A stretch of 64,000 bases of DNA from Peptococcaceae bacterium (GCA_022797295.1 JAAWKH010000007.1:1338-65337), one strand, 5' to 3'. Positions 6,201 to 54,793 are shown, numbered from the stretch's first letter. Numbers and translations: made by a program. The notes: generated from the letters alone by a model not told the origin.

Positions 6201-8497
6201 TGGATTCCAAAATTGCCTCACAATACAAAGAGCATTTGGAGTGGTCAATCAACAACCCTGAAGACCTGGGGCGTTTTATGAATGCAGAAGCTATAAAAGC
6301 CCTGCTTAGTGTTAATGAGCAAAGCAAGATTGCAACGCTGACAATTCCAAGCAACCTGCCTGAAAAAGTAACACAAATAGAGGTTAAAGTAGAAAACAAG
6401 ATAAATAACAACCCAAATCCTCCCAGTGCAGTTTTTTATGCTGTAATTGCAGATGAACCGTTTGTTCCTGTTAAAGAAATAAAAGAAAAAGAGGCTAACA
6501 AACAATATTCAATGACAGGCGGCATTCAGGAACTGTCCATTAACTTAAACGATAATGTCATTGTATCACCAAGCACTGCTACATTTAAGGATATAATCTG
6601 GAGTGAAACCATAGGCGAAGATGAGAATGGTAATCCTTTAGATAATGGCACCGCAAAATTGAATGGCAACACATTAACCGTTTATGAAGGTGGCACATAT
6701 TACGTAACCGCCACGGTGAAAGACGGCGACTTACTAAATGGAAAAGATAAATCACAGGATTTTATCATAAAGGTATCAGTGGCACCAATCAGTCCGATTG
6801 AAGTTACAACCACACCTCTTGCCAGTGATGGGTCTTTTTACACCGGACAACAAGTCAGCTGCACAATGGATAAATCAGTGTTGACGCAACATGGTAAAGA
6901 TATTAACTGGACTGTTTCTGATAGTATCACTGGAAACAGAAATACAGACAATACGTTTACTTTCACTATTCCAGCTAATTTTACTGGAGACTCCATAACC
7001 GTAACTGCCAAAAACACTCAAGTTACAGACAGCAAAGCAGAAACCAAAGAGATAAAGGTTACTAAGTTTACCGAAATTAAACCAGCGGATATTACAATTA
7101 CGAAGCCAACAACCGATCTCAAACACGGTGAAACATTTACTCTCAAAGCAACTACAACAGCGCCTCAACAGACAACGGTTATCTGGGAATTGAGCGGCAA
7201 TGATTCCTCAACAACACTTGACAGTACCTCTGGACTTTTGACGATTGGCCAAAGTGAAACCAATAAAACGATTTCTGTAACCGCTACCCTAGAGGGTGCG
7301 AAACTAAATGCTGATAAAAACGCTTTGGAAAGTGTATCAAAAACCGAAACTATTGGAATTGACTTAGGCACAGTTGGCAGAATTGAACTATCACCTAAAA
7401 TGCCTGATAATAAATATTATATTGGTCAAACAATCACATTTACTAAAGATGCAGGAACATCTAATAATCTCACCTGGAAAGTTTCATACGACTTGAGTAA
7501 AGTCGTTGATGGACACACGCCTCTAACAGTAACAAACAATAAATTAAGTTTAACTGGTATTACATTATTTTCCGATGTTACGGAACTTCCAATCACTTTA
7601 ACACCTGTATTAAATGGCCAAGAAGACACATCAAAGAAAAAAGATATAACGCTTCTTCCTTTCAATGGTGTAAAAACGCTTACTATTGCGGGAGTGGACG
7701 GAACAACCGTCGCACACGACAAAACATTGCAAATCAAAGCAACTATTACACCTGAAGATACAACCAAAGAAGCAACAAATAGCACTATTGAATGGACAAT
7801 AACTGGGCATGCAGATACAACTGGCACAAAGATTGAAAAAGACGGCGATAATTTCAAGCTAACAATCGGTAATGAATTTGCCAACGCATCCGCAACCACA
7901 CTCCAAAAGAAGATATACATCCAAGCTACTATTAAAAATGGTAAAATCTCCAATGGTTCGTTGACAGATGTACCCAGCTCTAAACTTACAATCACAATTA
8001 CAAGACCAAAACCGGAAGAACCTGATACCACTACTAAGGCGGCAACTTTAAGTTTGCGCAATCCTGGCGTTATGGATGAGCCTGGTGCAGATAATGCTAC
8101 AAACACGATTACAAGCACAGCAAAACCTGCAACCGCAATCAAGCTTTCAAGTGCAACCGGCACAAAAACTGTTGAAAAGGGCGACTCCGTGCAAATCAAA
8201 GCGACTGTTACCCCAACCAACGCAAGCAACAAAGACGATATTAAATGGACGATTAGCGGCAACAACAAATCTGGCACAACAATCAGCAGCGATGGACTTT
8301 TAACCGTTGCTGACAATGAAACTGCTAAAACGATTACCGTTAAGGCAACGATTGGCAAGGTATCTAACACCATTAAAATCACTGTTAAAACGCCAACCGT
8401 ACCCGAAAGGACAAATCGTGAACTGCCCAACGAGGCGAAAGACGCTATTAGCGGCGGCTCACGCTATCCCAACAAAACAGTGGTGCGTGCTGATTAA
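3203..8497 (+). CDS. Giant cell-surface protein (1764 aa) with a signal peptide, three N-terminal SLH domains, a beta-helix-like region and many Big_2-type Ig-like repeats.
   Basis: Signal peptide MKKHSFLRRFLTALALFGLLAVPQSAFA. Three SLH motifs follow (e.g. DGTFRPEASVTRAEFVKMV, NGNFNPDAPLTREEAASII, DGRFNPQKALTRAEAAAVL). The long T/S/N/V-rich repeated ~90 aa modules (e.g. ...VTATVANGKG..., ...TVTATVNNAKADGSS...) are typical of Big_2 domains. Confidence 0.85.
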   Translation: MKKHSFLRRFLTALALFGLLAVPQSAFAASDLPNNHWAASTINGYISRGIMSGYPDGTFRPEASVTRAEFVKMVNSVFGYNTPASISFGDVKSSYWGYNEIAKGVMAGYVNGDENGNFNPDAPLTREEAASIICRIKGLAPNQSAISNYIDSGRIATWAKPYVGAATQAGYMTGSGDGRFNPQKALTRAEAAAVLAKAESRQTSSNSGTYEPNNNVIHNTTSSSSNNSSSSSRVSDYTMSNNESTLSNKTITGNLYLPSGLGSKTVNLRNLTVDGTVYVRGGGTINVDDCDFNKVVLDKSGVRFETDSRCNVDRLEFWRNGTIEGQGYDNVIISDNSVSSATVNAKVENLLLDTDADLYLGRNARIDELEATSSSDDAVIRFNSNAEVDEMNIYDHIEIKGSGEINKMNCYSSGIYSSIRPDRVTTSGSGKRPTYTDDDDDDDDNSWGSGGNNNNNNNNNNNNNTTTNVKDLVVSSNVDGSSKKGNTSYDTVKVTNSGVTVKNIVVDKNLTIEASVGDGTVTFEHVTVKGQVYIHGGGQNSVIFSDCTLEKDVYIDKKPTNSIKQPMGLKLNNGTTLKGTIHITNNAHISTSPKEYQINNVVIDGTLTEPVLISANISKLSVESSSEVTLVLDDCTISSLSASSNKKITAKGKGNIEDISGVSNFEIPKKEGSEEKEEVNLPNLKPIIDISGVPSTIEAKAVVDLNTCQVKYADNSTGTITNATWTVSDDTANVTLSNNSLTAAQPGSFKLTATVANGKGIGEAYIQEFSPTNVTKEFVEVTDIVATIPPTYTLSETAKNEIALSATVKPENASNRTVVWSVTGGDGAKVEGSKLVLTGKGSYTVTATVNNAKADGSSVSKKFNIKVEAPYCPVGDIELTSLTYNETEKAYTAYAGSDFTLSAKVNPPKDKPNTTPSQSTIKWEIVRSDDKTLAISGNRISPKIPGQIVLKATVAGGKDNGAANYEQEIIINVKASLIGDIIVDPKQNSYYPGQTIELDLDSKIASQYKEHLEWSINNPEDLGRFMNAEAIKALLSVNEQSKIATLTIPSNLPEKVTQIEVKVENKINNNPNPPSAVFYAVIADEPFVPVKEIKEKEANKQYSMTGGIQELSINLNDNVIVSPSTATFKDIIWSETIGEDENGNPLDNGTAKLNGNTLTVYEGGTYYVTATVKDGDLLNGKDKSQDFIIKVSVAPISPIEVTTTPLASDGSFYTGQQVSCTMDKSVLTQHGKDINWTVSDSITGNRNTDNTFTFTIPANFTGDSITVTAKNTQVTDSKAETKEIKVTKFTEIKPADITITKPTTDLKHGETFTLKATTTAPQQTTVIWELSGNDSSTTLDSTSGLLTIGQSETNKTISVTATLEGAKLNADKNALESVSKTETIGIDLGTVGRIELSPKMPDNKYYIGQTITFTKDAGTSNNLTWKVSYDLSKVVDGHTPLTVTNNKLSLTGITLFSDVTELPITLTPVLNGQEDTSKKKDITLLPFNGVKTLTIAGVDGTTVAHDKTLQIKATITPEDTTKEATNSTIEWTITGHADTTGTKIEKDGDNFKLTIGNEFANASATTLQKKIYIQATIKNGKISNGSLTDVPSSKLTITITRPKPEEPDTTTKAATLSLRNPGVMDEPGADNATNTITSTAKPATAIKLSSATGTKTVEKGDSVQIKATVTPTNASNKDDIKWTISGNNKSGTTISSDGLLTVADNETAKTITVKATIGKVSNTIKITVKTPTVPERTNRELPNEAKDAISGGSRYPNKTVVRAD
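4511..4596 (+). repeat. Homopolymeric codon tract in the giant SLH protein encoding poly-Asp followed by poly-Asn (DDDDDDDDNSWGSGGNNNNNNNNNNNNN).
   Basis: Direct reading of the sequence: a GAC/GAT run followed by an AAT/AAC run. Confidence 0.9.
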
Positions 8498-8588: not shown

Positions 8589-9518
8589 ATGCGAAACCAA
8601 AAACCTATACTAAACACCAATGAACAAATTGCACATCTACAATCTAAAGGAGTTAAATTCAATTTAATATCTGTTGATGAAGCAAAAAAATATCTGGAAC
8701 TTAACAATAACTATTTTAAATTAAGAGCTTACAGAAAGAATTTTCCCAAACATCCTGACGGCCCATTAAAAGGTCAATATATCAACCTAGACTTTGCAAT
8801 GCTAAAGGACTTAGCCATAATTGATATGCACCTGCGCTATCTTCTTTTGCAAATGTCTTTGGATATTGAACATTTTGCCAAGGTTCGTCTACTAAAAGCT
8901 ATTGAAAACAACAACAACGACGGCTATTCAATCGTAATCGACTATATTGACTCCTTATCACCACAAAGAAAGCGAATTTTGCAAGAGGAGCTTGCACGTA
9001 ATCAAAATAATCCATATTGTGGTGGTATTATTTCCAAATACAACGGCTGTTATCCAATTTGGGCTTTTATCGAAATAATAACATTCGGTACGCTTATTCA
9101 TTTATATGATTTTTGTATAACAAAACTATGTCTAAAAAAAATGAAAAGTGATTATTACCTTTTAAGCACAATTCGTGAGCTTCGCAATGCAGCAGCTCAT
9201 AACAACTGCTTTATTTACGATATGAGTGCAAATGATGCCCAGCATAAGCCAGACCCTAAAATGTTAATGGCCCTAAAAAACATCCCTACAACAACAAAAC
9301 AAAAACGTTTTAAGAATGAGCGCACAAGACAAATTATAACCTTGCTATACACGCACAAAACATTTGTTAGTAGTCAGGGAGTTTTTAGCGCAAGAAAAGA
9401 AGCGCTTAACAAACTAATTGAACGGATTTTCCATCATATTGATTATTATGCTGATAATAAAATGATTCTTTCCAATTTTAACTTTTTGAAAAATGTTGTT
9501 GACATTTTATATCCTTAA
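8589..9518 (+). CDS. Abi family abortive-infection protein (Abi_2 / AbiD-AbiF-like).
   Basis: 309 aa in an AT-rich island. The N-terminus (KPILNTNEQIAHLQSKGVKF) and the overall architecture resemble the Abi_2 family, which typically begins KPFLTYEEQIELLKSRGL. The codon usage is atypical for this genome. Confidence 0.6.
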   Translation: MRNQKPILNTNEQIAHLQSKGVKFNLISVDEAKKYLELNNNYFKLRAYRKNFPKHPDGPLKGQYINLDFAMLKDLAIIDMHLRYLLLQMSLDIEHFAKVRLLKAIENNNNDGYSIVIDYIDSLSPQRKRILQEELARNQNNPYCGGIISKYNGCYPIWAFIEIITFGTLIHLYDFCITKLCLKKMKSDYYLLSTIRELRNAAAHNNCFIYDMSANDAQHKPDPKMLMALKNIPTTTKQKRFKNERTRQIITLLYTHKTFVSSQGVFSARKEALNKLIERIFHHIDYYADNKMILSNFNFLKNVVDILYP

Positions 9519-10134: not shown

Positions 10135-11583
10135 TCAAGCCCGCTTTTCAAGCACATCCTCCTGTGGCTGCAAATTCAACACACGCCGCCGCCCAGCAAC
10201 ATCTCCTGCCAGGGCTGCGTTGGCATTGGCCAGCAGCAGCTTAATCCGGTTTTCCTGATTGGTGCGGGAAGCGCCGGGGTCGTAATCAATCGCCACAATG
10301 TTGGCTTCCGGGTGCCGCTCCTTAACCGCCCTAATCATCCCCTTGGCCACAATATGATTAGGTAAGCAGCCAAAAGGCTGCGCGGAAACGATGTTGTTCA
10401 CGCCGCTTTCCAAAAGGTCCAGCATTTCACCGGTCAGCAGCCAGCCCTCGCCCATCTTCACGCCCTGGCTAATGCAACCTTTGGCCGCCCGCTGCACCTT
10501 AGTAAAAGTGGCCGGCGGCATAAAAGTGCCATCCAGACGAATAACGTTACGCATCGCTTGCTGGCCCAGCACCAACAGCTTAAACAGCGGCTTGCGCAGG
10601 CAAGTCCCCAGGGTAACGTGGCTATAAAGCTTAGCGTCCACAAAGCTATTGTTCAGGGAATAAAGCAGAAAATCCAGCACCCCGGTCACCACCGGCTGCG
10701 CCCCCTGTTCAATCAGATAATTTTCCAGGTCATTGTTGCCCAGCGGCGCATATTTCATATAAATTTCGCCCACAATGCCAACCTTAGGCTTCTGCACTGG
10801 CCGCCGTTTAATCTGCTTAAAAGCGTTTAAGATTTTCAGATAATTCGGGCCCAGCAGCAGATAACGCCCTGTGGCAAAGGCCTGCTCCAGCTGGTTGGTG
10901 ATAATCTCCACCACCTTGTCAGTATGGCCGGGCACCTCCTCATATGGTTTGCATTGATTTTTCAGCCACAAAATCATATCCCCATAGTAGCAAGCAAACA
11001 GGCAGCGCAGTAAAACCCGCTTGCTCAGGCTGAAACCGCCGCCAGCCTGCAAAGCGTCCAGGCGCAAAGGGATTACTGGAATATGCGAAAGGCCGTTTTT
11101 CTCCATCGCCTTGCGCAGCAGATAGATGTAATTGCTGGCCCGGCAGCCGCCGCCAGTTTGGGTCAGCAGCAACGCCGTGCGCTCCAAATCGTATTTGCCG
11201 CTTTTCAGAGCGTCAAGCAGTTGGCCAATCACCAGCAAGGCCGGATAACATGTGTCATTATGTACGTTTTGCAGACCTCGCTCCGTCACGCTGTAGCCGG
11301 AATTTTCCAAAAACTCCACATTGTAGCCCTGCCGCCGCAAAATGCCGCCAATCAGCTTAAAATGCACCGGCAGCATTTGCGGCACCAAAATGGTGTAGTC
11401 CCGCTTCATATCCGCCGTGAACTCCCGCAGAGGCATTTCATGCTCCCGCAAGGGCATTTCCATCTCCTCACGCTCCGCCTGATTGAACAGCCACTCCCAA
11501 AGATTGTTGAACGGCTCAATCAGGCGGTTCAAATGTGCTTGTAGATTTTGCTCATTTTCTGATTTTTTGCTTTTCTCCGACAT
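10135..11583 (-). CDS. DUF2229 / 2-hydroxyacyl-CoA dehydratase-related protein, the partner of the upstream double activase.
   Basis: 482 aa with an AGGAGG RBS, immediately downstream of the 981-aa BadF/BadG/BcrA/BcrD-type ATPase. In many Clostridia these two parts are fused into one ~1400 aa 'acyl-CoA dehydratase activase-related' protein. Confidence 0.6.
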   Translation of the reverse strand: MSEKSKKSENEQNLQAHLNRLIEPFNNLWEWLFNQAEREEMEMPLREHEMPLREFTADMKRDYTILVPQMLPVHFKLIGGILRRQGYNVEFLENSGYSVTERGLQNVHNDTCYPALLVIGQLLDALKSGKYDLERTALLLTQTGGGCRASNYIYLLRKAMEKNGLSHIPVIPLRLDALQAGGGFSLSKRVLLRCLFACYYGDMILWLKNQCKPYEEVPGHTDKVVEIITNQLEQAFATGRYLLLGPNYLKILNAFKQIKRRPVQKPKVGIVGEIYMKYAPLGNNDLENYLIEQGAQPVVTGVLDFLLYSLNNSFVDAKLYSHVTLGTCLRKPLFKLLVLGQQAMRNVIRLDGTFMPPATFTKVQRAAKGCISQGVKMGEGWLLTGEMLDLLESGVNNIVSAQPFGCLPNHIVAKGMIRAVKERHPEANIVAIDYDPGASRTNQENRIKLLLANANAALAGDVAGRRRVLNLQPQEDVLEKRA

Positions 11584-11594: not shown

Positions 11595-14540
11595 CTATTT
11601 TTCCATTGCCGCCAGCAGGCTGCGCGCCCGGATTTTAACCGCGGCCAGATTATTAATTTCGTCAATTTTCAGCTGGGTATAAATCTTGCCATTGCGTTCC
11701 AAAATATCTTTCAGCTCATCGCTGGTGATTGCGTCCAATCCGCAACCAAAGCTCACCAGCTGCACAAGCTGCATATTATCGTGCCGGCACACGTAACGCG
11801 CCGCATTATACATTCGAGTGTGATAAGTCCACTGGTTCAGCACATTCACTTTCTGGCTGTAAACCAAATCGGTCAAAACCCTTTCCGCCAGCACCACAAA
11901 ACCCAGCGAATTGAAAAGCTTGTCAATACTGTGATTAATCTCCCGATCCACGTGGTAAGGCCGCCCAGCCAAAACCACCACCTTCCAGCCCTGCTCCTTC
12001 GCCTGGTGCAAAGCCCGAATCCCATAATCCTCCACATCCGCCCACCATTGGCGATATGCCGTCCAGGCTTTGTTGGCCGCCACAATACACTGGGCCAGCG
12101 AAAGATTAAGCTCCGGGAAAAGTTCGTGAAAATGCCCGCCCAAAACCGTGCGATCATTCAGGCTCAAATAGGGAAAGCGGAAATCCACCTCTTTCAGCAC
12201 CGGCACATTGGCATGCAACAGCTCTGGATAATAGGCCACCACCGGGCAGTTGTAATTCTTATCGCCGCGGCCCTCGTCGATATTGTAGCTGGAGCAGGGA
12301 TAAAAAATCCTGTCCACACCTCTTTCCAGCAACGCCTCAATATGCCCGTGCGCCAGCTTGGCCGGATAACACACCGTATCAGATGGAATAGTCAGCTGCC
12401 CCTTGGCGTAAAGCTGCCGTGAGGACTCGCCGGAAACAATCACATTACAACCCAACTGCCGGAAAAATTCATACCAAAACGGCAGGTTCTCATACATATT
12501 CAGCACCAGCGGAATGCCAAAAGTTGGCCGCTCCGGCTGAGCCGCGGCCTCCGCCTCGCTTTGCGCCATCAGCGCCTTGAGCTTTTCATTAATATATTCA
12601 TAAACATTCGGCCGATCCAACGGTTTGCCGCCTTGGCCACGTTCGCACTTGTTCCCGCTGATAAAACGCCGCCCATTTGGAAAAATATTCACCGTCAGCG
12701 AACAATGATTAGCGCAGCCTTGGCAAGTGGCCGGCCGTGGCTGGTGCCGAAACTCCGCCAACTCAGCCGCCGGCATAATGCTGGATTCCAGCAGCCCCAA
12801 CGTTTGGTGGCGCTGCTGGGCATAGAGAGCCGCGCCAAAGGCTCCCATCAGCCCGGAAATATTCGGCCGCACCACATCGTAGCCCAATTCACGCTCAAAA
12901 GCTCGCAACACTGCGTCATTCAAAAAGGTACCGCCCTGCACCACAATTCGCCGGCCCAGCTCTTGCGCGCTGTGCACGCGCAAAACCTTGTAAATCGCAT
13001 TTTTCACCACGCTAATAGCCAAACCGGCGCTGACGTCGCCAACCTCAGCGCCATCGCGCTGGGCCTGCTTCACGGAGGAATTCATAAACACCGTGCAGCG
13101 AGAACCCAAATCCACCGGCCGCTTAGCAAACAAAGCCAGCTTGGCAAATTCGGCCGCCGAATAGCCCAAGGCCTCCGCAAAAGCTTGGATGAACGAACCG
13201 CAGCCGGAGCTGCAAGCCTCATTCAGCGCAATGTTGTCAATCGTGCCGTTGCGGATAGTAAAGCATTTCATATCCTGCCCGCCGATGTCGATAATGTAAT
13301 CCACCTGCGGTTCAAAATAATGCGCCGCCGTAAAGTGGGCCACGGTTTCCACCAGCCCATAATCAATATTAAAAGCGTTTTTGATTAGCTCCTCGCCGTA
13401 ACCCGTCACCGCAGCCGCTCGCAGGCTGATATTTTCGCCCAGAATTTCATAAATATGCAACAGTTGCTGCTGAATAATCGGCAAGGGATTGCCCTTGTTG
13501 CTAGCATAATAGGTGTAAAGCAGATTGCCATTTTCGCTGATTAAAGCCAGCTTGCTGGTTGTGCTGCCCACATCGATACCCAAATAGGCCCCGCCTTGAT
13601 AGGTCTGCAAATCTGCCTGCGGCACGCTGTCGCGCTGATGGCGATCCTGAAACTGGGCATATTCCGCCTCATCCGCAAACAGAGGGGGCAAAAAACGGCT
13701 TTTCCCCTGTACCGATTTCCGCGCCAGCAACAGCTTTTGCCGCAACTGGTCGTAGCTGTAAGCTTCCGGCTGACCATCCGCATAAACCGCCGCGCCCAAG
13801 GCCACAAAATATGTGCCCAGCTCCGGGAAAACGGCATTTTCCGGCTCCAGATGCAAAGTTTCAATAAAACGCTGGCGCAGGCCCAGGTTAAAAGAAAGCG
13901 GGCCACCCAAAAACAGCACTTTGCCTTCAATACGCCGGCCCTGCGCCAAACCGGTCACAGTCTGCTCGGCCACCGCCTGATAAATGCTGGCTGCAATATC
14001 TTCCTTTGCCGCGCCCTGATTAATCAACGGTTGAATATCCGTTTTGGCAAAAACGCCGCAACGTGAAGCAATCGGGTAAATCTTCTTGTGGCGCAGGCTC
14101 AGCTCGTCTAGCTCCTCCACGCTGACGTTCAGCAGCATTGCCATCTGGTCGATAAAAGCGCCCGTGCCGCCGGCGCAGGTGCCATTCATTCGCTCCTCCA
14201 CGCCGCCGGTCAGAAACAGGATTTTCGCGTCTTCACCGCCCAGCTCAATCACCACATCCGTTTCCGGCTCCAACTCGGCCACCGCGCCGGAAAGGGCGTA
14301 AACCTCCTGCACAAATGGTATGCCGCCAGATTCCGCCAAGGACATCCCCGCCGAACCGCTGATAGCTACCTTAACCTGTCGGTTTTTCAACAGCAGCGGT
14401 AAGCTGCCAATAATTTCATCCAATTTTTCGGCAATCCTGGACCCATGCCGCTGATAAGTAGAATACAAAAGGCCGCCGGCATCGTCAATCAGCACCACCT
14501 TAATCGTGGTGGAGCCAATATCAATACCCAGTCTGTACAT
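11595..14540 (-). CDS. CoA-substrate-specific enzyme activase-like protein with two tandem BadF/BadG/BcrA/BcrD (HgdC-like) ATPase domains and a Cys-rich C-terminal region.
   Basis: Two acetate/sugar-kinase-fold phosphate-1 motifs (MYRLGIDIGSTTIKVVLIDD and YLGIDVGSTTSKLALISENG) and a Cys cluster (CQGCANHC...NKCERG). 981 aa with a good RBS. Confidence 0.7.
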   Translation of the reverse strand: MYRLGIDIGSTTIKVVLIDDAGGLLYSTYQRHGSRIAEKLDEIIGSLPLLLKNRQVKVAISGSAGMSLAESGGIPFVQEVYALSGAVAELEPETDVVIELGGEDAKILFLTGGVEERMNGTCAGGTGAFIDQMAMLLNVSVEELDELSLRHKKIYPIASRCGVFAKTDIQPLINQGAAKEDIAASIYQAVAEQTVTGLAQGRRIEGKVLFLGGPLSFNLGLRQRFIETLHLEPENAVFPELGTYFVALGAAVYADGQPEAYSYDQLRQKLLLARKSVQGKSRFLPPLFADEAEYAQFQDRHQRDSVPQADLQTYQGGAYLGIDVGSTTSKLALISENGNLLYTYYASNKGNPLPIIQQQLLHIYEILGENISLRAAAVTGYGEELIKNAFNIDYGLVETVAHFTAAHYFEPQVDYIIDIGGQDMKCFTIRNGTIDNIALNEACSSGCGSFIQAFAEALGYSAAEFAKLALFAKRPVDLGSRCTVFMNSSVKQAQRDGAEVGDVSAGLAISVVKNAIYKVLRVHSAQELGRRIVVQGGTFLNDAVLRAFERELGYDVVRPNISGLMGAFGAALYAQQRHQTLGLLESSIMPAAELAEFRHQPRPATCQGCANHCSLTVNIFPNGRRFISGNKCERGQGGKPLDRPNVYEYINEKLKALMAQSEAEAAAQPERPTFGIPLVLNMYENLPFWYEFFRQLGCNVIVSGESSRQLYAKGQLTIPSDTVCYPAKLAHGHIEALLERGVDRIFYPCSSYNIDEGRGDKNYNCPVVAYYPELLHANVPVLKEVDFRFPYLSLNDRTVLGGHFHELFPELNLSLAQCIVAANKAWTAYRQWWADVEDYGIRALHQAKEQGWKVVVLAGRPYHVDREINHSIDKLFNSLGFVVLAERVLTDLVYSQKVNVLNQWTYHTRMYNAARYVCRHDNMQLVQLVSFGCGLDAITSDELKDILERNGKIYTQLKIDEINNLAAVKIRARSLLAAMEK

Positions 14541-19930: not shown

Positions 19931-20470
19931 CTATTCCAACGTCAGCGATTCCTTTAAGGAACGCAGCTGTTGGCTAAGGCTTGCGTCGTACACAGTGTCG
20001 TCAATTTGCACCTTCAGGCCGCCGATAAGTTGCTTATCCAGCAGCGTTTTCAGGCGAATTTTGGCGTTCAGCTTGTCAGCCAGGGCCTTTTCCAAAGCCT
20101 GCTGCTCCTGCTCAGCCAACGGCACCGCCGTGTGCACCACAACCTGACGCACACCGGCAGCCTCGTCGCAAAGCTCCTCATAAGCTGCGGCAAATTCCGG
20201 CAAACTAGCTTCCCGGCCTTTGTCCAAAATTACAAAAATGAAGTTTTTCACCTCAACCGGCGTATCCTCTGCCAAAATCTTTTCAATCAACTGTTTTTTG
20301 GCGGAAGTGGACATCAGCTTGCCGTAAATCATCTGGGCCAATTCCTCATTTTGCTGCAACAAAGCCACAAAATCGTGCAAATTGCGGCCAAAGGCGGCCT
20401 CTTGCTGTTTGGCCTGGGCCAATTCCAGCAAAGCCTTGGCATAGCGTTTTGTCAAACCGGCCTTAATCAT
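19931..20470 (-). CDS. atpH: F0F1 ATP synthase subunit delta (OSCP).
   Basis: About 180 aa from the internal Met MIKAGLTKRYAKAL. Its position between atpF and atpA fits the operon order. Confidence 0.8.
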   Translation of the reverse strand: MIKAGLTKRYAKALLELAQAKQQEAAFGRNLHDFVALLQQNEELAQMIYGKLMSTSAKKQLIEKILAEDTPVEVKNFIFVILDKGREASLPEFAAAYEELCDEAAGVRQVVVHTAVPLAEQEQQALEKALADKLNAKIRLKTLLDKQLIGGLKVQIDDTVYDASLSQQLRSLKESLTLE

Positions 20471-20951
20471 TTTTTGCCGCCACCTCTGCAATATATTTAT
20501 CCACCAAAGCCATATGCTGTTTGTCGGTCATATCCTCAGCCAACAAACGGCCAGCCACGGAAACCACCATATCAGCCACTTCGCCTTTAATAGCCAAAAT
20601 GGCGTCGGCCTTTTCCTTGGCAATCTCAGCTTCAGCACGAGCCAAAATGCTATCCGCGGAAGTTCTGGCCTGGGCCAAAATATCTTCCTTGGTTTCCTCC
20701 GCCGTTTTTTGGGCGTCGTCAATAATAGCCTTGGCTTGGCGTCTGGCGTCGGCAATTTCCTCCGCCAGTTTAGCGCTCATCTGTTCTGCCTCACGGCGCG
20801 CCGCGTCAGCCTTGTTCAGGCTGTCGTCAATGGTTTGCTGCCGGGAGTCGATCATGCGGATAACAGGCCCCCACATGAATTTATATAAAATAGCCACGAG
20901 AACTAAAAAGTTCACCATGACAAATATTAAAGTCTGAACATCAATCTCCAT
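20463..20951 (-). CDS. atpF: F0F1 ATP synthase subunit b.
   Basis: About 163 aa from the Met MEIDVQTLIFV, with an N-terminal TM helix and a long charged coiled coil. Confidence 0.8.
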   Translation of the reverse strand: MEIDVQTLIFVMVNFLVLVAILYKFMWGPVIRMIDSRQQTIDDSLNKADAARREAEQMSAKLAEEIADARRQAKAIIDDAQKTAEETKEDILAQARTSADSILARAEAEIAKEKADAILAIKGEVADMVVSVAGRLLAEDMTDKQHMALVDKYIAEVAAKND

Positions 20952-21053
20952 TAGGCGATTGCCCTCCTCTCGGTCTTGGTTACGATTGGCTCCCCACCCC
21001 CAGCGCCCCAAAGGGGAGCGCCAGGGAGAAAGCCAAACATCTGTGGCCGCTTA

Positions 21054-21311
21054 TTAGCCGATATTGCCTACGATCATAAAAGCAATCAGCAGACCATAAA
21101 TGGTCAAAGCTTCCAACAAAGCCATAGCCAAAATCATAGCTGTACGAATGTCGCCGGCAGCCTCAGGCTGACGAGCAATACTCTCCATAGCAGCAGCGCC
21201 CACTTTGCCCTGGCCCAAAGCCGGGAAAATAGTAGAGATAGCGATAGCCAGAGCGGCTGCCAATGCAATAATTGCACTTTCCATATCCATATTCCTCCTT
21301 TCCAAATCCAA
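21054..21311 (-). CDS. atpE: F0F1 ATP synthase subunit c.
   Basis: 85 aa hairpin proteolipid (GQGKVGAAAMESIARQPEAAG...). Confidence 0.9.
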   Translation of the reverse strand: MDLERRNMDMESAIIALAAALAIAISTIFPALGQGKVGAAAMESIARQPEAAGDIRTAMILAMALLEALTIYGLLIAFMIVGNIG

Positions 21312-21389
21312 ACACGCGGACTTTAAAACTTTATACCATAATAATTAAACGAGAAAACACATTAAATTCGGGCTAAACTCAAAACCATC

Positions 21390-22061
21390 TTAATGCCCTG
21401 CGCTGGTGGCCGTGTCGATATAAATGGCCGAAAGCATGGTGAACACCAGGGCCTGAATAAAGCCAAACAACAGGGACAAACCCATAATAACGATTGGCGC
21501 CCCCAAGGGAATCAAACCGCTCACTTGATGCAAAACGGTTTCTTCACCGTAAATATTGCCAAATAGACGCAAAGAAAGAGATAACGGGTGAGTGACCTCT
21601 TCCAGCAGCATCAAAGGCAGCAGCGGCGCCACTGGCTTCACAAAATGCCCTAAATAATGCACGCCATGATATTTGAAACCGCCGTACTGGGTGGCTAAGA
21701 AAGTAACCAGCGCCAGCCCCACAGTGCAGCTAAGCGTGCCCGTGGGCGGCTGAAAGCCTGGCAGCTCTCCGGCAAGCGGCAGCAAGCCGCTGTAGTTTGA
21801 TATGATAATATACAAAAACAGAGTCCCCAGCACCGGCAAAAAAGCCGTTGCCTTTTCCTTGCCAATAATACTGCCATAAAAATCACGCAAGCCGCCAACC
21901 ACATATTCCAAAGCGCTTTGCAAACGCCCCGGCTGGCGTTCCTTCAAATTGCGTGTGCCGGCAATCGCCACCACGCTTACCACTGCCGTAATCGCCAATG
22001 AAGTGGTCATCACGCTGTTCACGTGAAATGCGCCGATTTCAAACAAAGTAGCGTTAGACAT
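21390..22061 (-). CDS. atpB: F0F1 ATP synthase subunit a.
   Basis: 223 aa polytopic membrane protein with a subunit-a-like C-terminus (LSLRLFGNIYGEE). Confidence 0.85.
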   Translation of the reverse strand: MSNATLFEIGAFHVNSVMTTSLAITAVVSVVAIAGTRNLKERQPGRLQSALEYVVGGLRDFYGSIIGKEKATAFLPVLGTLFLYIIISNYSGLLPLAGELPGFQPPTGTLSCTVGLALVTFLATQYGGFKYHGVHYLGHFVKPVAPLLPLMLLEEVTHPLSLSLRLFGNIYGEETVLHQVSGLIPLGAPIVIMGLSLLFGFIQALVFTMLSAIYIDTATSAGH

Positions 22062-22143
22062 ATTTACCTGCCTCCTTTCTTTGCAAACTTAATGTAAAAT
22101 ATTTAAAATTTTTTACACTCCTATTAAAAGAACCAAAAAAAAC

Positions 22144-22497
22144 CTATTTCCGAATCAGCCGCTTGTTCAGGCCTGTGCAGGCCAACAGCAACTGAAAAAA
22201 TACCGTTAACATTATGCCAACGCCCAGCAGGGTGAAATCCCAACGGAAAGGCAACCAGCCGCGGGCCAAAAACAAAGCCAGCAGCAAAAGCACATCCAAA
22301 ATATACTTGCTGACGTGAAATTTCAAAACAGCATTCAAGGCTTGGCGGTTCACAGCTTGTCCGTCCTCGCCAGCCTGCAAAGCGGCCGCCATCTTGGCAT
22401 CGCTCCTTTTCACAACTTGAAGAAGTAACGCCAGCGCCACTAAAACCCAAACTCCGCCAATCGCGGCGCCCATTAGCAGCGCATAAAAAATTTCCAT
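22144..22497 (-). CDS. atpI: ATP synthase protein I / AtpZ-like small membrane protein.
   Basis: 117 aa, two hydrophobic segments, immediately upstream of atpB at the head of the operon. Confidence 0.55.
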   Translation of the reverse strand: MEIFYALLMGAAIGGVWVLVALALLLQVVKRSDAKMAAALQAGEDGQAVNRQALNAVLKFHVSKYILDVLLLLALFLARGWLPFRWDFTLLGVGIMLTVFFQLLLACTGLNKRLIRK

Positions 22498-22708
22498 AAA
22501 ATCCCGGCCTCCTGTCGCAGCTTTTCACCAAAGCCGCTTTTCCATTTACTATTATACAAAAGACAATGCAAAAAGGCAATAGCAAAATACTATTTTAAGC
22601 AATTTTTTTGCAGAAAAAAATTTTACATTAAAAAATAATTGCAAATATCAACAAAAACCGCCGCCCAAAACCTGCGTTTAGCAGGCATTTAGCGACGGTT
22701 TAGCTTAT

Positions 22709-23095
22709 TTATTCCGGTATTTTGGCAATTAACTCCACTTCCAACAGGCTGCCCTTTGGCAAAGCGGCAATCTGCACACAGGAACGGGCCGGAAAAGGTT
22801 CCACAAAATATTCAGCATAAATGCTGTTTACTTCGGCAAAATTGGCCAAATCAGTTAAAAACACTGTGGTTTTCAACACATCCGCAAAGCCGCAGCCAGC
22901 AGCTGCCAAAACCTGCTTCAGGTTGGCAAAAACCTGCCGGGCCTGAGCCTCCACCGTTTCGCTGGCCAACTCGCCGGTGGCTGGGTCAATCGGCACCTGA
23001 CCGCTGGCAAAGAAGAAGCCGCCAGCCACAATCCCCTGAGAGTACGGCCCCAAAGCGGCCGGAGCAGCCGCCGTAGTAATCTGTTTTTTTGACAT
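22709..23095 (-). CDS. ridA: RidA family (YjgF/TdcF) reactive-intermediate/imine deaminase.
   Basis: About 128 aa from MSKKQ, with RidA-like motifs (PAALGPYSQG...ASGQVPIDPATGEL...RSCVQIAALPKG). Confidence 0.8.
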   Translation of the reverse strand: MSKKQITTAAAPAALGPYSQGIVAGGFFFASGQVPIDPATGELASETVEAQARQVFANLKQVLAAAGCGFADVLKTTVFLTDLANFAEVNSIYAEYFVEPFPARSCVQIAALPKGSLLEVELIAKIPE

Positions 23096-23167
23096 TACTA
23101 TAAAACACATCCTTTGTTAAGTTAGAAAAATTCAGTCTATTTTAAATAGGTAGAAAATGGTTCAAAT

Positions 23168-23842
23168 TTATTCAACCGGAGCCGATTCCACCGGTGCAGC
23201 AGCCGCAACATCGCCGCCGCCAGCCGCCGCGGGAGCTCCCTCAACCCCACCGGCCGCCTCCACGGAACCGCCCTCTTGCGCCTGCTCCTCATCCTCAAAC
23301 AAGGAGTCGTATTTCTCGTGCTCCTTAGCGGACATCGCCAACGTTTTAGCCATTGTGTAAAGCACTTGGCTATATTCCAGCAGCTTTTGTTCATCAGAGC
23401 CCGGCACCTGGCCGCCGGTGGAAATGCGGCGAGCAATTTCCATCATTTTCAGCATGTAGTCCATGGCCTCTTTGGCCGCTTCCGCCTCGTCCTTGGCCGC
23501 TTCTTTCTGCCGTTGCAAAGACTCCTGCATAGCCTTGGCCGCCTGCTCCGCCATTTTCTTTTCATTCTCCAGCTTGTTGTCAGTGCCGGTTAAAGCCTGA
23601 TAAACCGCATTGGCCGCCGCCAGGCGAGCCTCTGCCGAAAGCGCCACTCTGTCCTGCTTGCTCACAGCCGCAGTTTGCGCCGCGGCTTGACGCAATCCGG
23701 TTTGCGCGTTTTCCTGCACATTATCGGCCACACCAGCCACCACTGATTTGGCCTGCGCGCCCTGCCCGGCCGACGTATTCCGACGCTTGGGGCCGAAAAT
23801 ATTATTCCGGCCAAAAATGTTGTTTTGATTTGTGATCCTCAC
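23168..23842 (-). CDS. Hypothetical Ala/Glu/Lys-rich coiled-coil protein.
   Basis: 224 aa with no recognisable family. It is low-complexity with a central coiled-coil-like region. Confidence 0.4.
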   Translation of the reverse strand: MRITNQNNIFGRNNIFGPKRRNTSAGQGAQAKSVVAGVADNVQENAQTGLRQAAAQTAAVSKQDRVALSAEARLAAANAVYQALTGTDNKLENEKKMAEQAAKAMQESLQRQKEAAKDEAEAAKEAMDYMLKMMEIARRISTGGQVPGSDEQKLLEYSQVLYTMAKTLAMSAKEHEKYDSLFEDEEQAQEGGSVEAAGGVEGAPAAAGGGDVAAAAPVESAPVE

Positions 23843-23892
23843 TTTGTTAGCCTCCTTTGCTAAGCCACGGCTAAATGGCTAAAAATTCAATT

Positions 23893-25329
23893 TCAGCGGT
23901 GATGCCTGCCGTGATGACCGCCCACCGCCTGGCTGGCATAATGATGCGTATGGTTCAGGGAACAATTCTGCGCACAGTAACCGCTTTGATAATGATGAGT
24001 GTGGCTCAAAGTGCAGTTCTGCGGGCAGTAACCATCCGCAGTTTGATAACAATGCGTATGGTTCAGCGAGCAATTTTGCGGACAGTAATCAGTCTGATAG
24101 TAGTGTGTATGGTTCAGCACACAATTTTGGGCACAGTAAACCGTCTGACTGGATACGCTGACCGCTTGCTGAGCGACACGGTGAGCTTGATTGTAGAAGT
24201 AATCCTGCCGTTCCGCCTGCATATCCAACACCTGACCGGTGTAGGCGTCCAACTCCAATTCATATTTCACAAAATTGTAGTAAATTTCCACATCGTAAAC
24301 CCAGCGGTCATCATCATATTCCAACTTTAGCTTGGTGATATTGTTCAGGCTGGAACCCGGCACCGCCCGCAAAGCAGCCGCCCGCGCGTCATCATTGCTC
24401 ATCACCTGGCTCTGGTTGGGATTTTGGTTTGACTGGCCGGGCTGAACAATCTGCCCCGCTTTGTTTTCTGTTTCCATCTTGAGTGTGGCGCCGGTGTAAG
24501 CATCCAGCTCCAGCTCATATTCCACAAAGTTGTAAAGCAGCTCCACCTCATAAACCGGGCGGCCATCGTCATAATCCAGCTTTAGCTTGGTAATATCACT
24601 GGCCGAAGCGCCGGAAACTATGCGCAAAGCAACCGCTCTGGCCTCATCCAAAGTCAGCATTACGCCATTGTTGTTTGAGCCGGGATTGGTTGTTCCGGGA
24701 TTAACCGGCTTGTTTGAGGTGTTGGAATTAAAGCTGTCCGCATCCGTCACCGTATTGCCGGAGCCAGTACCGCCATAAATGCTGATGGTGGAAGTGCGTC
24801 CGTCCCAATCCACATTTTTACCCATCAGCTCGCCAATCGAACGCAAGGGCAAATAAACCGAACCGTTGTAAAGCAACGGATAAATGGCAGTGCCGTCGGA
24901 ATTGGTGAAGCTGCGGCGCACGCCATCCATCATAATTGTAAAATCCGGGCGCAGCTGAGCCGTCACATATTGCCGGGAAGCCGACGTTACCCGACCGCTA
25001 GAGGGTGCCGCGGTGCGCTTGCCCTCCAGGCTGGCCGTCAAATTGGCCTCATCCCAGTTGACATTTTTGTTCATCAACTCGCCCATCGCCCGCAAAGGCA
25101 GATAAGTGCTGTTGTTGTAAACCAACGGATAAACCGGCTGTCCTGTTGAGTTAAAAAGGTTCTGGTTTACACCATCCACAACGATTTTATAATCGGGGTT
25201 CAACTGAGCTGTCACATTGGTGACGGTGGGGGCGGCGCTTACCACGCCAGCCGCTCCCAGCAAGGCAACCAACAGCAACATCACCAGCAACAGCATACTC
25301 CTCCGGGATTTCAGAATACGCATAAGCAT
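23893..25329 (-). CDS. Secreted protein with 2x copper-amine-oxidase-N-like (Cu_amine_oxidN1) domains, 2x PepSY domains and a C-terminal 4x Cys/His-rich repeat.
   Basis: Signal peptide, then the Cu_amine_oxidN1-type YLPLRAMGELMNKNVNWD and YLPLRSIGELMGKNVDWD. Two PepSY-like blocks follow (ITKLKL(D/E)YDD..VYEVE..Y...YELELDAYTG). The tail repeats YC(A/P)QNC(S/T/V)L(N/S)HTH(H/Y/C)YQ four times. Confidence 0.7.
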   Translation of the reverse strand: MLMRILKSRRSMLLLVMLLLVALLGAAGVVSAAPTVTNVTAQLNPDYKIVVDGVNQNLFNSTGQPVYPLVYNNSTYLPLRAMGELMNKNVNWDEANLTASLEGKRTAAPSSGRVTSASRQYVTAQLRPDFTIMMDGVRRSFTNSDGTAIYPLLYNGSVYLPLRSIGELMGKNVDWDGRTSTISIYGGTGSGNTVTDADSFNSNTSNKPVNPGTTNPGSNNNGVMLTLDEARAVALRIVSGASASDITKLKLDYDDGRPVYEVELLYNFVEYELELDAYTGATLKMETENKAGQIVQPGQSNQNPNQSQVMSNDDARAAALRAVPGSSLNNITKLKLEYDDDRWVYDVEIYYNFVKYELELDAYTGQVLDMQAERQDYFYNQAHRVAQQAVSVSSQTVYCAQNCVLNHTHYYQTDYCPQNCSLNHTHCYQTADGYCPQNCTLSHTHHYQSGYCAQNCSLNHTHHYASQAVGGHHGRHHR

Positions 25330-25397
25330 CTCCTCCTTATTTCTTTTTCTACCTATATATTATAAGTAATTCTCCGCCATTAAGCAAGTGGTTTTAG

Positions 25398-27386
25398 CTA
25401 TTTTATCGCAGATTTTTTACTGGAACTTTTTGGCCCGGCTGCTGTTTTAGGCCGGCCAGCTGTGGAGCCTGCCGATTTGTAACGCCGCGGCTCCTCTGGA
25501 AAGCGCACAAAACGGTTCGATGTGCGGCAATCGTGCACCAGATACTGCACATAACGACGAATACTAGCCATAAAAACTTCATCCGTCATCCGGCCGCCCG
25601 CAATGGCGGAAAGCCCGCGTTCCCACTTGCCGGTGGTTTCCGGCGATTTCAGCTCCGGCGGCACCACCTCCATCAAGCGCTCCCCCTTTTCGGTGGGCAG
25701 CAAATTTTTGCCCTGCCGCCGGATATAGCCCACTTTCAGCAACCGTTCAATAATAGCCGCCCTGGTGGCCGGCGTGCCCAGGCCGTTCTCCTTTAGCTGC
25801 TCGCGCAGGGCTTCGTCCTCCACAAAACGCCCGGCGTTCTCCATTGCGGATAGCAGCCCCGCCTCCGTATACGGCTTGGGCGGTTGGGTTTTCTTACGGC
25901 TGCTTTTGACGGCCAAAACTTGCGCCGGCTGCCCCTCCTGCAAGCTGGGCAGCTGCTGGTCGTCCTCTTTGGCGCTTTTTTTGGCTGTGGCGGTCTTTTT
26001 CGGCGGCGTCTCCGCCGCCTCCCAGGCTTGCAGCTGTTGATAAACCGCCTGCCAACCGGCCTGCAAAACCTCCTGCCCGCGGGAAGCAAACAGCTCGCCC
26101 TGCGGATTGGCCTCCGTTTGCACCTGCGTCAGCACCTTTGTCACGGCATAACGATAGGGCGGATAAAACACTGCCAGGAAGCGCAGCGCCACCAAACGAA
26201 ACACCCGCAGCTCATCCGGGGTCAACCCCTCCAGGCGCAAATTGCCCTCCGTGGGGATAATAGCGTGATGATCGCTAATTTTGCTGTTATCAATAATCCG
26301 CTTGCTCAGCGGCAACGGTTGGCCCAACAGCGGCGCGGCCAAATCTGAAAACTGAGTCAGACCAGCCAAACGCTGCACCCGGCTGGCCAAATGCGGCGCC
26401 AAGTCGTCGCTGAGATAACGGCTATCCGTGCGTGGATAGGTCAGCAACTTGCGCCGCTCATACAAGCTTTGAGCAATATCCAGCGTTTTCTGGGCGGAAT
26501 AGCCATAGCGTCGATTACAATCGCGCTGTAGCTCCGTCAAATCGTAAAGCAGAGGCGGCGGCTGGCTTTTTTCCTCGCGCCCCACCTGCAAGACCTGCGC
26601 CGGCCGGCCCTTCACCGCCGCCTGCAAGGCCTTGGCCTGCTCGGCGGCCTGCGGGCCAACCAAGCGCGTTTTACCCTGCTTATCCTGCCAAACGCCCCAA
26701 TAGGTTTGGCCGTCCGCCAAAGCAAAATCGGCCCTAAGCTCCCAATATTCCTCCGGCACAAAAGCGGCAATCTCCTGCGCCCGCGCCACAATAATCGCCA
26801 AAGTTGGCGTTTGCACCCGGCCAATGGAAAGCAATGTGTTATATTTCAGGGTGTAGGCCCGGCTGGCGTTAATACCCACCAGCCAATCCGCCTCCGAACG
26901 GCAGCGAGCCGAAGCAAACAGATTATCGTAATCCGCACCGGGGCGCAGGCTGGCAAAGCCCTCCCGCAGGGCCTCGTCCGTCATACTGGAAACCCACAGC
27001 CGCCGAAAAGGCTTGCGGCAGCCGCACAGCTGATAAATATAGCGAAAAATCAGCTCGCCCTCCCGACCGGAATCGGTGGCGCAAATCAAACTTTCCACCT
27101 CCGGGCTGCGCAGCAGCTTTTTCAGCACCGCCAGCTGGGCCCGGCCGCTGACCACTGCTTGCAGCTGCATTTGCTCCGGCATAATCGGCAGCGTTTCCAT
27201 ACTCCACTTTTTCCAGGCCGGATTGTAGTCCTCCGGGTTGCAAAGGGCGGCCAGATGGCCCACCGCCCAGGATACGATATAATTGCCGCCAGCAAGCAGA
27301 CCGTCTCCTTTTTCCCGGCAGCCCAAAACGCGGGCGATGTCGCGCCCGACGGAGGGTTTTTCGGCTATTACTAAAACTTTTCCCAT
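25398..27386 (-). CDS. topB: DNA topoisomerase III.
   Basis: 662 aa. The N-terminus VLVIAEKPSVGRDIARVLGC and WAVGHL (Toprim plus type IA topoisomerase) closely match Bacillus TopB, with a Lys-rich C-terminal tail. Confidence 0.85.
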   Translation of the reverse strand: MGKVLVIAEKPSVGRDIARVLGCREKGDGLLAGGNYIVSWAVGHLAALCNPEDYNPAWKKWSMETLPIMPEQMQLQAVVSGRAQLAVLKKLLRSPEVESLICATDSGREGELIFRYIYQLCGCRKPFRRLWVSSMTDEALREGFASLRPGADYDNLFASARCRSEADWLVGINASRAYTLKYNTLLSIGRVQTPTLAIIVARAQEIAAFVPEEYWELRADFALADGQTYWGVWQDKQGKTRLVGPQAAEQAKALQAAVKGRPAQVLQVGREEKSQPPPLLYDLTELQRDCNRRYGYSAQKTLDIAQSLYERRKLLTYPRTDSRYLSDDLAPHLASRVQRLAGLTQFSDLAAPLLGQPLPLSKRIIDNSKISDHHAIIPTEGNLRLEGLTPDELRVFRLVALRFLAVFYPPYRYAVTKVLTQVQTEANPQGELFASRGQEVLQAGWQAVYQQLQAWEAAETPPKKTATAKKSAKEDDQQLPSLQEGQPAQVLAVKSSRKKTQPPKPYTEAGLLSAMENAGRFVEDEALREQLKENGLGTPATRAAIIERLLKVGYIRRQGKNLLPTEKGERLMEVVPPELKSPETTGKWERGLSAIAGGRMTDEVFMASIRRYVQYLVHDCRTSNRFVRFPEEPRRYKSAGSTAGRPKTAAGPKSSSKKSAIK

Positions 27387-35938: not shown

Positions 35939-36015
35939 TGGCGTGCTACGAGGGATTCGAACCCCCGACCTTCTGGTCCGTAGCCAGACGCTCTATCCAG
36001 CTGAGCTAGTAGCAC
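35939..36015 (-). tRNA. tRNA-Arg (anticodon ACG).
   Basis: The reverse complement folds as a cloverleaf with anticodon loop CTACGGA, T-loop GGTTCGAATCC and a 3' CCA. Confidence 0.85.
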
Positions 36016-36031
36016 ATATATTTATTAAAAG

Positions 36032-36126
36032 TGGCGGAGAGCAGGGGATTCGAACCCCCGATACAGGTTTTTGCCCGTATACTCGCTTAGCAGGCGAGCG
36101 CCTTCGACCGACTCGGCCAACTCTCC
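36032..36126 (-). tRNA. tRNA-Ser (anticodon GCT), class II with a long variable arm.
   Basis: Reverse complement GGAGAGTTGGCCGAGTCGG...CTGCTAA...GGTTCGAATCC...CCA, with a long extra arm. Confidence 0.85.
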
Positions 36127-36142
36127 ATGTCAAGTGCGTAAA

Positions 36143-36231
36143 TGGCGGAGAGGGTGGGATTCGAACCCACGACACATTGCTGTGCGACGGTTTTCAAGAC
36201 CGCTCCGTTATGACCACTTCGGTACCTCTCC
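36143..36231 (-). tRNA. tRNA-Ser (anticodon TGA), class II.
   Basis: Reverse complement GGAGAGGTACCGAAGTGG...CTTGAAA...GGTTCGAATCC...CCA. Confidence 0.85.
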
Positions 36232-45100: not shown

Positions 45101-45216
45101 GCATCCTGCTCCACAACCGGGCGCTCGGAGATGTCGCTGAAAGTAGCTGCGTAGGCACTGGCAGAGAATGCAAACATCATTACAACTGCCAAAAGAACTA
45201 CGAGTTTCTTTTTCAT
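42184..45216 (-). CDS. SLH-domain cell-surface protein (1010 aa); candidate S-layer protein.
   Basis: GGAGGAAACAGG RBS and signal peptide MKKKLVVLLAVVMMFAFSASAYA. Three SLH motifs follow (e.g. DGTFGPDKTITRAEFAKIAV; NGNFRPNDTISNQEAITVM), then a long T/N/S/G/D/V-rich beta-type region. Codon bias is extreme: no TTA, CTA or TCA codons in more than 900 codons. A long leader of about 680 nt with no ORF precedes it. Confidence 0.85.
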   Translation of the reverse strand: MKKKLVVLLAVVMMFAFSASAYAATFSDISERPVVEQDAIKKAVALGIIEGYEDGTFGPDKTITRAEFAKIAVTAAGAKDTATMLEANASSFKDVKANSWYTGWINAGESLGIFKGDANGNFRPNDTISNQEAITVMLRLLGYNDNLTGSWPVNYVTKANQINILDDVNIVASAAAKRGDIVVMLSETLDSDLVTYDKDTNEFVKKQIGITNSQAVTLLADSFEGSYIEVNSFFQIDQLRDVSAQTLNWNVGKVLEAEQVTTNGVTSTYNRPVNFKGTLIVDKDTAVSYNATDLFNLENHQGKVYYVKGNDGKLYARFIEVESYVQTVTDTPKATESGSRVQVNKTNYNAANTVDWGTNAPSTGNTDKNNGAVSSKNTNYSLYFNDDDQVYMVRSDKDFEEKTYYIKSVSASSARLVGTKTKTVNMSDADTLIYDGDKFISPSDLKVGDAVREIAEGDLYVKVADANGTLTRWTESTQKITVGGKSYVVPNSAQEDTENNTTVISINFYEEDLNDSDVSIEDVYNNNIRYILNKDNTVAAIIVDETSTGTTLYGIIVDGGGNGGSWAKNMSSITLFTQEGNTVTYDFEKNMDGKPTDDDAYTIMGRLAKYKLNANGEIKNFEVIKETGEKSLDFTAKEGKAGEIEVKNNAYLVDTAGKSFALASNVIIFEVGNDKTDIDPSLVTRSALLGGGDFTPVEVENVTLDGTNVPKNLPAYAVYDLNTNGAIKVLAYTDASNTKYHYGIVKAYNFRDYDNDHAITLVGDEETYELAWNTATNSAKGEPSKADAFIVYTLSGEKIEPVYSYANDHGLSSYAKQVIGFNSGLISFADKGIYVAEDKSASEGHQNDVYRNSIMTDANTQVFVIDAKSGDYVEGALSDISRNSYVYVPVINKDSYAEVVLVDDYHSYKADSDNNGTTTPTTYSVTNLNLKVVNADGDEVQAGSLRITPGKQDGNTYTFSFSGLANGQTITPINAEADGTTISLVGANRRSVNLTKNVTTLVITVQVTEK

Positions 45217-54635: not shown

Positions 54636-54711
54636 GGACCATTAACTCAGTTGGTAGAGTAGCTGACTCTTAATCAGAATGTCCACGGTTCGAGTCCGTG
54701 ATGGTCCACCA
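54636..54711 (+). tRNA. tRNA-Lys (anticodon CTT).
   Basis: Cloverleaf with anticodon loop CTCTTAA, T-loop GGTTCGAGTCC and CCA. It is close to the Bacillus tRNA-Lys backbone, with a G27-A43 mismatch. Confidence 0.8.
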
Positions 54712-54714
54712 TAT

Positions 54715-54790: not shown

Positions 54791-54793
54791 TCT

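Follow-up and report, generated by a model that had tools for sequence, protein, structure and literature searches.

Tandem Cys/His-rich units form the C-terminal tail of a predicted exported PepSY protein in an uncultured Peptococcaceae bacterium

We analyzed a 64,000-nucleotide stretch of a Peptococcaceae bacterium genome (GCA_022797295.1, JAAWKH010000007.1:1338-65337; hereafter, the window), focusing on a minus-strand gene at 23893..25329. Its predicted product starts with a signal peptide, continues with two Cu_amine_oxidN1 and then two PepSY domains, and ends in a tail of 84 residues rich in cysteine and histidine (Table 1). An earlier note on this DNA had described a fourfold Cys/His repeat at the end of a secreted protein of the PepSY / Cu_amine_oxidN1 type. 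All four units were read in the sequence, and both Pfam domains were matched, PF07833 (Cu_amine_oxidN1) with 56.2 bits against a cutoff of 24.2 (E = 3.8e-15) and PF03413 (PepSY) with 79.1 bits against a cutoff of 24 (E = 3.1e-22), each over two stretches; the Pfam scan of the whole protein returned nothing beyond these two families. The tail sequence quoted in the note was exact, and its coordinates were correct within 2 nt.

Table 1. Positions of the gene, its predicted protein parts and putative expression signals, counted from the first letter of the window
Feature	Position	Strand	Basis
Whole gene, 478 codons + stop	23893..25329	-	Open reading frame list, Pfam matches
Predicted Sec signal peptide, residues 1-32, cleavage between VSA and AP	25234..25329	-	Sequence reading and AlphaFold helix at residues 3-23
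Two Cu_amine_oxidN1 ("stalk") domains, residues ~36-103 and ~119-186	24772..25224	-	Pfam PF07833, AlphaFold pLDDT 70-88
Two PepSY domains, residues ~226-290 and ~311-375	24205..24654	-	Pfam PF03413, alignment, AlphaFold
Repeat unit 1, YCAQNCVLNHTHYY, residues 398-411	24097..24138	-	
Repeat unit 2, YCPQNCSLNHTHCY, residues 415-428	24046..24087	-	
Repeat unit 3, YCPQNCTLSHTHHY, residues 434-447	23989..24030	-	
Repeat unit 4, YCAQNCSLNHTHHY, residues 451-464	23938..23979	-	
His-rich C-terminal end, ASQAVGGHHGRHHR, residues 465-478	23896..23937	-	
Putative own promoter, TTGCTT-17 nt-TATAAT	25359..25387	-	Sequence reading; consensus match only
Ribosome-binding site, AGGAGG	25332-25337	-	Sequence reading

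The units are spaced by linkers of 3-5 residues, and the segment that follows unit 4 contains GGHHGRHHR. At the DNA level, Tandem Repeats Finder reported an array with a period of 51, 3.8 copies and 69% matches at 23944-24143 (score 150). The pattern Cx3Cx3HxH occurred four times in the tail, against a maximum of two in 200,000 composition-preserving shuffles of the same residues. When the looser pattern C-x(2-4)-C-x(2-5)-H-x-H was searched in all open reading frames (ORFs) of at least 80 codons in the six frames of the 64 kb, five occurrences were found, four of them in this tail. The fourfold repeat is therefore well beyond chance. The last 84 residues hold all nine cysteines and 14 of the 15 histidines of the protein, leaving the 394-residue body with no Cys and a single His; 73% of the tail consists of C, H, Y, N, Q, T and S, and only 12 of its 84 residues are hydrophobic. 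An ORF on the plus strand at 23875-24330 (151 aa) was rejected as a gene, being an antisense shadow of the tandem repeat and itself repetitive (MMRMVQ..ILRTV..).

Conservation was counted over 29 distinct units from 12 proteins, which gave the 14-residue consensus Y-C-[APQ]-x-[ND]-C-x-L-[NS]-H-T-H-x-Y. Five residues (C2, C6, H10, H12 and Y14) were invariant in all 29 units, while Y1, L8 and T11 were each kept in 26-28 and N9 in 26. Position 13 was His in 15 units and otherwise N, C, Y or S, and free variation was seen at positions 3, 4 and 7 and in the linkers. These counts bear on the proposal, made in the earlier note, that NxT/S sequons in the repeat might be glycosylated. The third position of N-C-x was S or T in 16 of 29 units, with Q, P, F, V or Y elsewhere, and the Asn of N-H-T was replaced by Ser in three; since neither sequon is the conserved feature, the glycosylation reading was not supported.

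The tail is under purifying selection. Among orthologues, the ratio of non-synonymous to synonymous substitution rates (dN/dS) was 0.066-0.097 in the tail, compared with 0.069-0.19 in the folded body. Within the window, the four units differ pairwise at 6-16 of 42 nt, and synonymous codon differences equal or exceed non-synonymous ones in every pair, so the conservation of the repeat does not simply reflect recent duplication of the DNA. The number of units nevertheless changes, with 2 to 4 seen across the clade. In JGI metagenome data, the contig L012 is 98-99% identical to window positions 20171-26191 and carries, at 3700-3990 (compared with window positions 23938-24030), an exact in-frame deletion of 51 bp (17 codons), by which units 3 and 4 become one and three units remain. 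Unit number is thus polymorphic (3 versus 4) within a species.

We then examined how far the tail extends among relatives of the protein. A search of 5.8 billion clusters with the whole protein gave 376 matches, and the C-termini of the best 120 were inspected, together with an alignment. Eleven of them (P0001-P0010 and P0014; 59-100% coverage, 62-100% identity) carried 2, 3 or 4 copies of the unit followed by the pattern GHH..(R)HH(R), which was kept in all repeat-bearing orthologues. Three others (P0011-P0013) ended in different tails of Cys, His and Tyr, such as ...HHANRHLRGYCGYCWN and ...GTHHNNHHSHANLHGYCGYCGYYVK. In these sister lineages (P0011-P0013; L007:292-1311), the tails consist of HH-rich stretches followed by GYCGYC(W/G), or of CQGC..GHCPGY..GHCSDYCWR. 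The remaining 106 of the best 120 matches (36-46% identity) stopped directly behind their last PepSY domain and had practically no Cys or His there. The alignment also showed that the shorter orthologues (P0005-P0014) lack the first PepSY domain.

The gene for P0012 is followed by the same downstream gene of unknown product as in the window (63% identity), and on account of this common neighbor P0012 is regarded as an orthologue with a different tail rather than as a paralogue. Because syntenic sister orthologues bear different Cys/His tails, such as HHNNHHSHANLHGYCGYCGYYVK, it is Cys/His chemistry that the group has retained rather than one particular fold, and this tail chemistry predates the 14-residue repeat.

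The earlier note had not recognized the repeat as a named domain, and profile searches agreed. The best match of the 83-residue tail in Pfam-A 2025 was Vanabin-2 (E = 0.28, 11.8 bits against a cutoff of 25), NCBIfam 20.0 gave no match, and the best hit among PDB sequences, a botulinum light chain, was not significant (E = 1.4). A search of a word-indexed protein database with the tail alone returned nothing, although the identical tail of P0001 is present there. As the whole-protein search found the identical protein and 10 further tail-bearing clusters, this null result reflects a limitation of the word index and not a true absence; repetitive, compositionally biased queries seem to escape such an index. 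A HMMER profile, built from an alignment of the last two units and the C-terminal end and run against 1.84 billion representatives at 50% identity, recovered only the family's own cluster, P0004 (E = 1.5e-23). The sole extra match (P0121) contained an unrelated repeat (NCTIWITHHY) and was spurious on inspection. In JGI metagenomes, a peptide-pattern scan gave no match, and a scan with a degenerate DNA pattern gave seven loci, six of which were chance matches in ORFs that were too short or unrelated. In total, the repeat was found in 4 of 185,579 species genomes, all of them metagenome-assembled genomes of uncultured Bacillota / 'Peptococcaceae' and one from a mouse gut catalogue, and it accounts for about a dozen protein clusters at 90% identity and a single cluster at 50% identity.

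Structure prediction, which the earlier note had proposed as a way to find a repeated metal-binding fold, gave no confident fold for the tail. With a 13-row family alignment, AlphaFold2 modeled the stalk and PepSY domains at a predicted local distance difference test score (pLDDT) of 70-88 and residues 376-478 at only 27-39. The tail alone, with a 10-row alignment, reached a mean pLDDT of 41 with no secondary structure. Given its composition, the tail cannot form a hydrophobic core, and any ordering must therefore come from metal or disulfide cross-links. Low pLDDT and a lack of hydrophobic residues are as expected of a segment that needs such cross-links for order.

Taken together, we put a probability of about 0.5, slightly better than even, on the tail being a natively unstructured array, outside the cell, of short units that bind metal, a reading drawn from the sequence pattern and from analogy with characterized proteins. 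Each unit (Y-C-x3-C-x3-H-x-H-x-Y) would supply a pair of thiolates and a pair of imidazoles, frequently joined by a third His (position 13), and these ligands could suffice to enclose a single ion of the soft or borderline kind, for example Zn(II), Ni(II), Co(II) or Cu(I/II). With four units and the GHHxRHHR end, a molecule would have some 4-5 sites, presented extracellularly on a scaffold of PepSY and stalk domains, where the tail might capture or buffer metal at the surface of an anaerobe. In an anaerobic setting, the exported Cys residues would be expected to stay reduced. The role would lie among scavenging, detoxification or buffering, and metal-dependent control of the PepSY part. We prefer a metal-binding array to the alternatives because the C-x3-C-x3-H-x-H core is invariant, a third His is frequent and the His-rich end is conserved, and also because the body has no Cys and only one His, the orthologues bear differing Cys/His tails and the tail has no autonomous fold.

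Several characterized systems bear on this interpretation. One likeness is with the fungal zincophores. The unstructured C-terminus of the secreted zincophore Aspf2, PNCHTHEGGQLHCT, binds Zn(II), and more weakly Ni(II), through two Cys and two His (PMC9780748). The tails of Aspf2 and Pra1 (SHCHTHADGEVHC) have in common with the present one that the protein is secreted (here by prediction) and ends in a short, unstructured, conserved Cys/His segment with H-T-H beside a Cys. There is no homology, however, and the body here is of the PepSY/Cu_amine_oxidN1 type and not a Pra1/Aspf2 domain. The spacing is C-x3-C-x3-H-x-H instead of C-H-x-H-x5-H-C, the site is repeated 2-4 times, and the host is a bacterium instead of a fungus. 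No Zn importer of the kind that accompanies Pra1/Aspf2 lies beside the gene, whose neighbors are topoisomerase III, RidA and ATP synthase genes.

Bacterial metallochaperones provide a second comparison. SlyD, HypB, Hpn, CooJ and UreE have terminal, disordered, low-complexity segments rich in His or Cys that store or deliver Ni or Zn. Those segments are cytoplasmic and irregular, whereas the tail described here is predicted to be exported and consists of a strictly periodic 14-residue unit. Metal-binding Cys/His-rich tails are thus already known, and it is the strictly periodic, exported unit that is a new variant. Ordinary secreted PepSY/Cu_amine_oxidN1 proteins of Clostridia (e.g., P0064 from Feifania hominis) resemble the body at 40-46% identity but end after the last PepSY domain (...ESIYD), without Cys or His. 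A classical C2H2 zinc finger (C-x2-4-C-x12-H-x3-5-H) was rejected on spacing, and no zinc-finger profile matched even at E = 10.

Several points weigh against a metal-binding array. The earlier note had suggested metal binding from the paired Cys and the HxH; the pattern held up, in that C, C, H and H are kept in 29 of 29 units under the low tail dN/dS given above, but ligation by these residues is something we infer from that pattern. The CxxxC spacing differs from the usual CxxC of zinc knuckles, and the likenesses to CuA, Sco and Aspf2 are ones of pattern and not of homology. The flanking Tyr and the near-invariant Leu, Asn and Thr are unexplained by ligand chemistry alone. The AlphaFold models of the tail did not bring the ligand residues together. 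No metal transporter, metallochaperone or metal-responsive operator was linked to the gene at any locus read, and no palindromic operator was visible upstream of it, the sigma-70-like promoter being the only conserved element.

As for the identity of the metal, the precedent of the free peptide speaks somewhat for Zn or Ni, and the spacing for Cu. In a narrower version, each Cx3Cx3H(xH) loop would bind copper specifically, like CuA or Sco, and the protein would protect from copper or deliver it; we regard this as unlikely. The Cx3Cx3H spacing, present in all 29 units, is identical to the core of the CuA loop of cytochrome oxidase subunit II and N2O reductase, for which the canonical motif is Hx34Cx3Cx3Hx2M (PMC6189053). 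The upstream His at ~34 residues, the Met at H+3 (here H, N, C, Y or S) and the cupredoxin domain are all missing, however, and neither the whole protein nor the tail gave a COX2 or cupredoxin match in Pfam. Sco proteins bind Cu through CxxxC and one His (PMC5668878). The Sco/SenC copper chaperones share this ligand set with the tail, outside the cytoplasm, but they have a thioredoxin fold with the His ~85-100 residues away, whereas here the His follows three residues after the second Cys in a foldless segment, and no Sco or thioredoxin Pfam match was found. No cop, cso or cytochrome oxidase genes lie near the gene, and Aspf2, the closest studied free peptide with two Cys and two His, prefers Zn (PMC9780748). 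Two other cofactor sites were also rejected. In c-type haem attachment (CXXCH or CX3CH) the His would be adjacent to the second Cys, and here it is three residues further on; a Rieske-type or other Fe-S site, suggested by the number of Cys and His (two each), has a different motif arrangement and is made unlikely by the extracellular location.

The earlier note had also raised a disulfide-knotted, wall-anchoring module. Quite unlikely, in our view, is such a structural repeat stabilized by disulfides, in which CxxxC loops or pairs between units would build a stiff stalk or make the tail adhere to the wall or S-layer. The paired Cys in each unit and the flanking Tyr would suit such a role; so would the structured envelope indicated by SLH-domain and S-layer-type proteins, and the protein has no other retention signal. 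C-terminal sorting signals (LPXTG and the -CTERM types) were rejected, as the tail has no hydrophobic segment. A disulfide repeat would, however, leave the invariant H-x-H and the His-rich end unexplained, AlphaFold predicted no fold, and sister orthologues have His-rich stretches and CxxC instead. Moreover, the host appears to be anaerobic (see below), and extracytoplasmic disulfides are uncommon in anaerobes.

That the tail is a substrate for modification seems distinctly improbable. It could then be a multi-core precursor resembling those of ribosomally synthesized and post-translationally modified peptides, a segment for Cys/Tyr/His cross-linking in a spore or envelope layer, or a target of S- or N-glycosylation. 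The 2-4 nearly identical tandem "cores" with variable linkers are reminiscent of such precursors, Tyr, Cys and His abound in the tail, and most units have an N-H-T sequon. The sequons are not conserved, however, and the units are joined to a folded protein of 390 residues and not to a leader peptide. No gene for a radical-SAM enzyme, cyclodehydratase, MNIO, glycosyltransferase, other maturase, peptidase or exporter was found within ~8 kb (L001, L004) or ~1.5 kb on either side (L009-L011), and the only non-housekeeping neighbor, a gene for a 224-229-aa protein, is missing in L009 and L011. Finally, a low-complexity expansion without function, in which the C-terminus tolerates a repeat prone to slippage, would fit the copy number of 2-4, the exact one-unit deletion in one strain and the narrow phylogenetic range, but it is largely refuted by the selection analysis, with the low tail dN/dS, residues that stay invariant despite saturated synonymous divergence between units and species, and a reading frame that is always kept, and we consider it extremely improbable.

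If the units do bind metal, each would be a very small, periodic and genetically expandable Cys2His2 site, unrelated to zinc fingers and located outside the cell of a strict anaerobe. The tail would then serve as a compact model of the origin of metal-binding modules through tandem duplication, and might point to the use of proteins for scavenging or buffering metal in gut Firmicutes. A first functional handle would also be gained on one branch of the large, uncharacterized family of secreted PepSY/Cu_amine_oxidN1 proteins. General importance is limited by the narrow distribution (4 species genomes and a single 50%-identity cluster). A more ambitious interpretation, which we offer only as a doubtful conjecture, is that an uncultured gut anaerobe has here a metallophore made of protein, which it would secrete or display on its surface as a "zincophore-like" scavenger. 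Gaining or losing 17-codon units of two Cys and two His would tune the capacity of this protein, even between strains, and the 14-residue motif, a minimal metal-binding module complete in itself, would have evolved de novo through tandem amplification from a simpler His/Cys tail.

Turning to expression and export, the putative promoter is sigma-70-like and lies in a 68-bp gap after the topoisomerase III gene, and its hexamers are kept at the orthologous loci L010, L004 and L001. The AGGAGG stands 2 nt from the first ATG and 8 nt from the second (25323). On the basis of this spacing, the true start is probably the second ATG, giving a protein of 476 aa, in agreement with P0001, an identical database protein of the same length. 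By sequence reading, the N-terminus (KSRR, then a hydrophobic helix and the cleavage motif, with no lipobox) looks like a Sec signal peptide.

At every locus read, the gene lay between topoisomerase III on one side and RidA, an AtpI-like gene and the F-type ATP synthase operon on the other, with an M18 aminopeptidase beyond topoisomerase III in L001 and L004. The conserved downstream gene (window 23168-23842, minus strand) encodes an Ala/Glu/Lys-rich protein of 224 aa (224-229 aa across loci) that begins MRITNQNNIFG; the protein matches no Pfam family and shows no obvious signal peptide. Loci L001, L004, L007 and L010 have the gene; in L009 and L011, where it is missing, RidA follows directly. 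In L004 (181-1118), DtxR/MntR-family (Fe_dep_repress) and Rrf2-family regulators were seen ~3-4.5 kb upstream, with nothing that ties them to the gene, and an Rrf2-family gene likewise lies upstream in L001, again with no tie to the repeat-tail gene. The tail-less family member of Feifania hominis is found in another context, adjoining a two-component system and another PepSY gene.

The window also gave indications of the lifestyle of the host. It encodes a 981-aa CoA-enzyme activase with BcrAD_BadFG and DUF2229 domains (11595-14540), and activases of the BcrAD/BadFG type are typical of strict anaerobes. Two large SLH-domain proteins, one of 1764 aa with a Big_2 domain (3203-8497, plus strand) and one of 1010 aa (42184-45216, minus strand), suggest an S-layer or SLH-anchored envelope. 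As the window encodes both the SLH proteins and the activase, the host would fit an S-layer-bearing strict anaerobe. Directly downstream of the activase is a 482-aa ORF without a Pfam match (10135-11583, minus strand), whose product may be a partner of the activase. The ORF of the 1010-aa SLH protein has a 912-aa ORF on the opposite strand, and an Abi_2 (abortive-infection-like) protein is encoded beside the larger SLH protein (8589-9518, plus strand). Elsewhere in the window there are two tRNA clusters of three genes each, at 35942-36231 on the minus strand and 54636-54867 on the plus strand.

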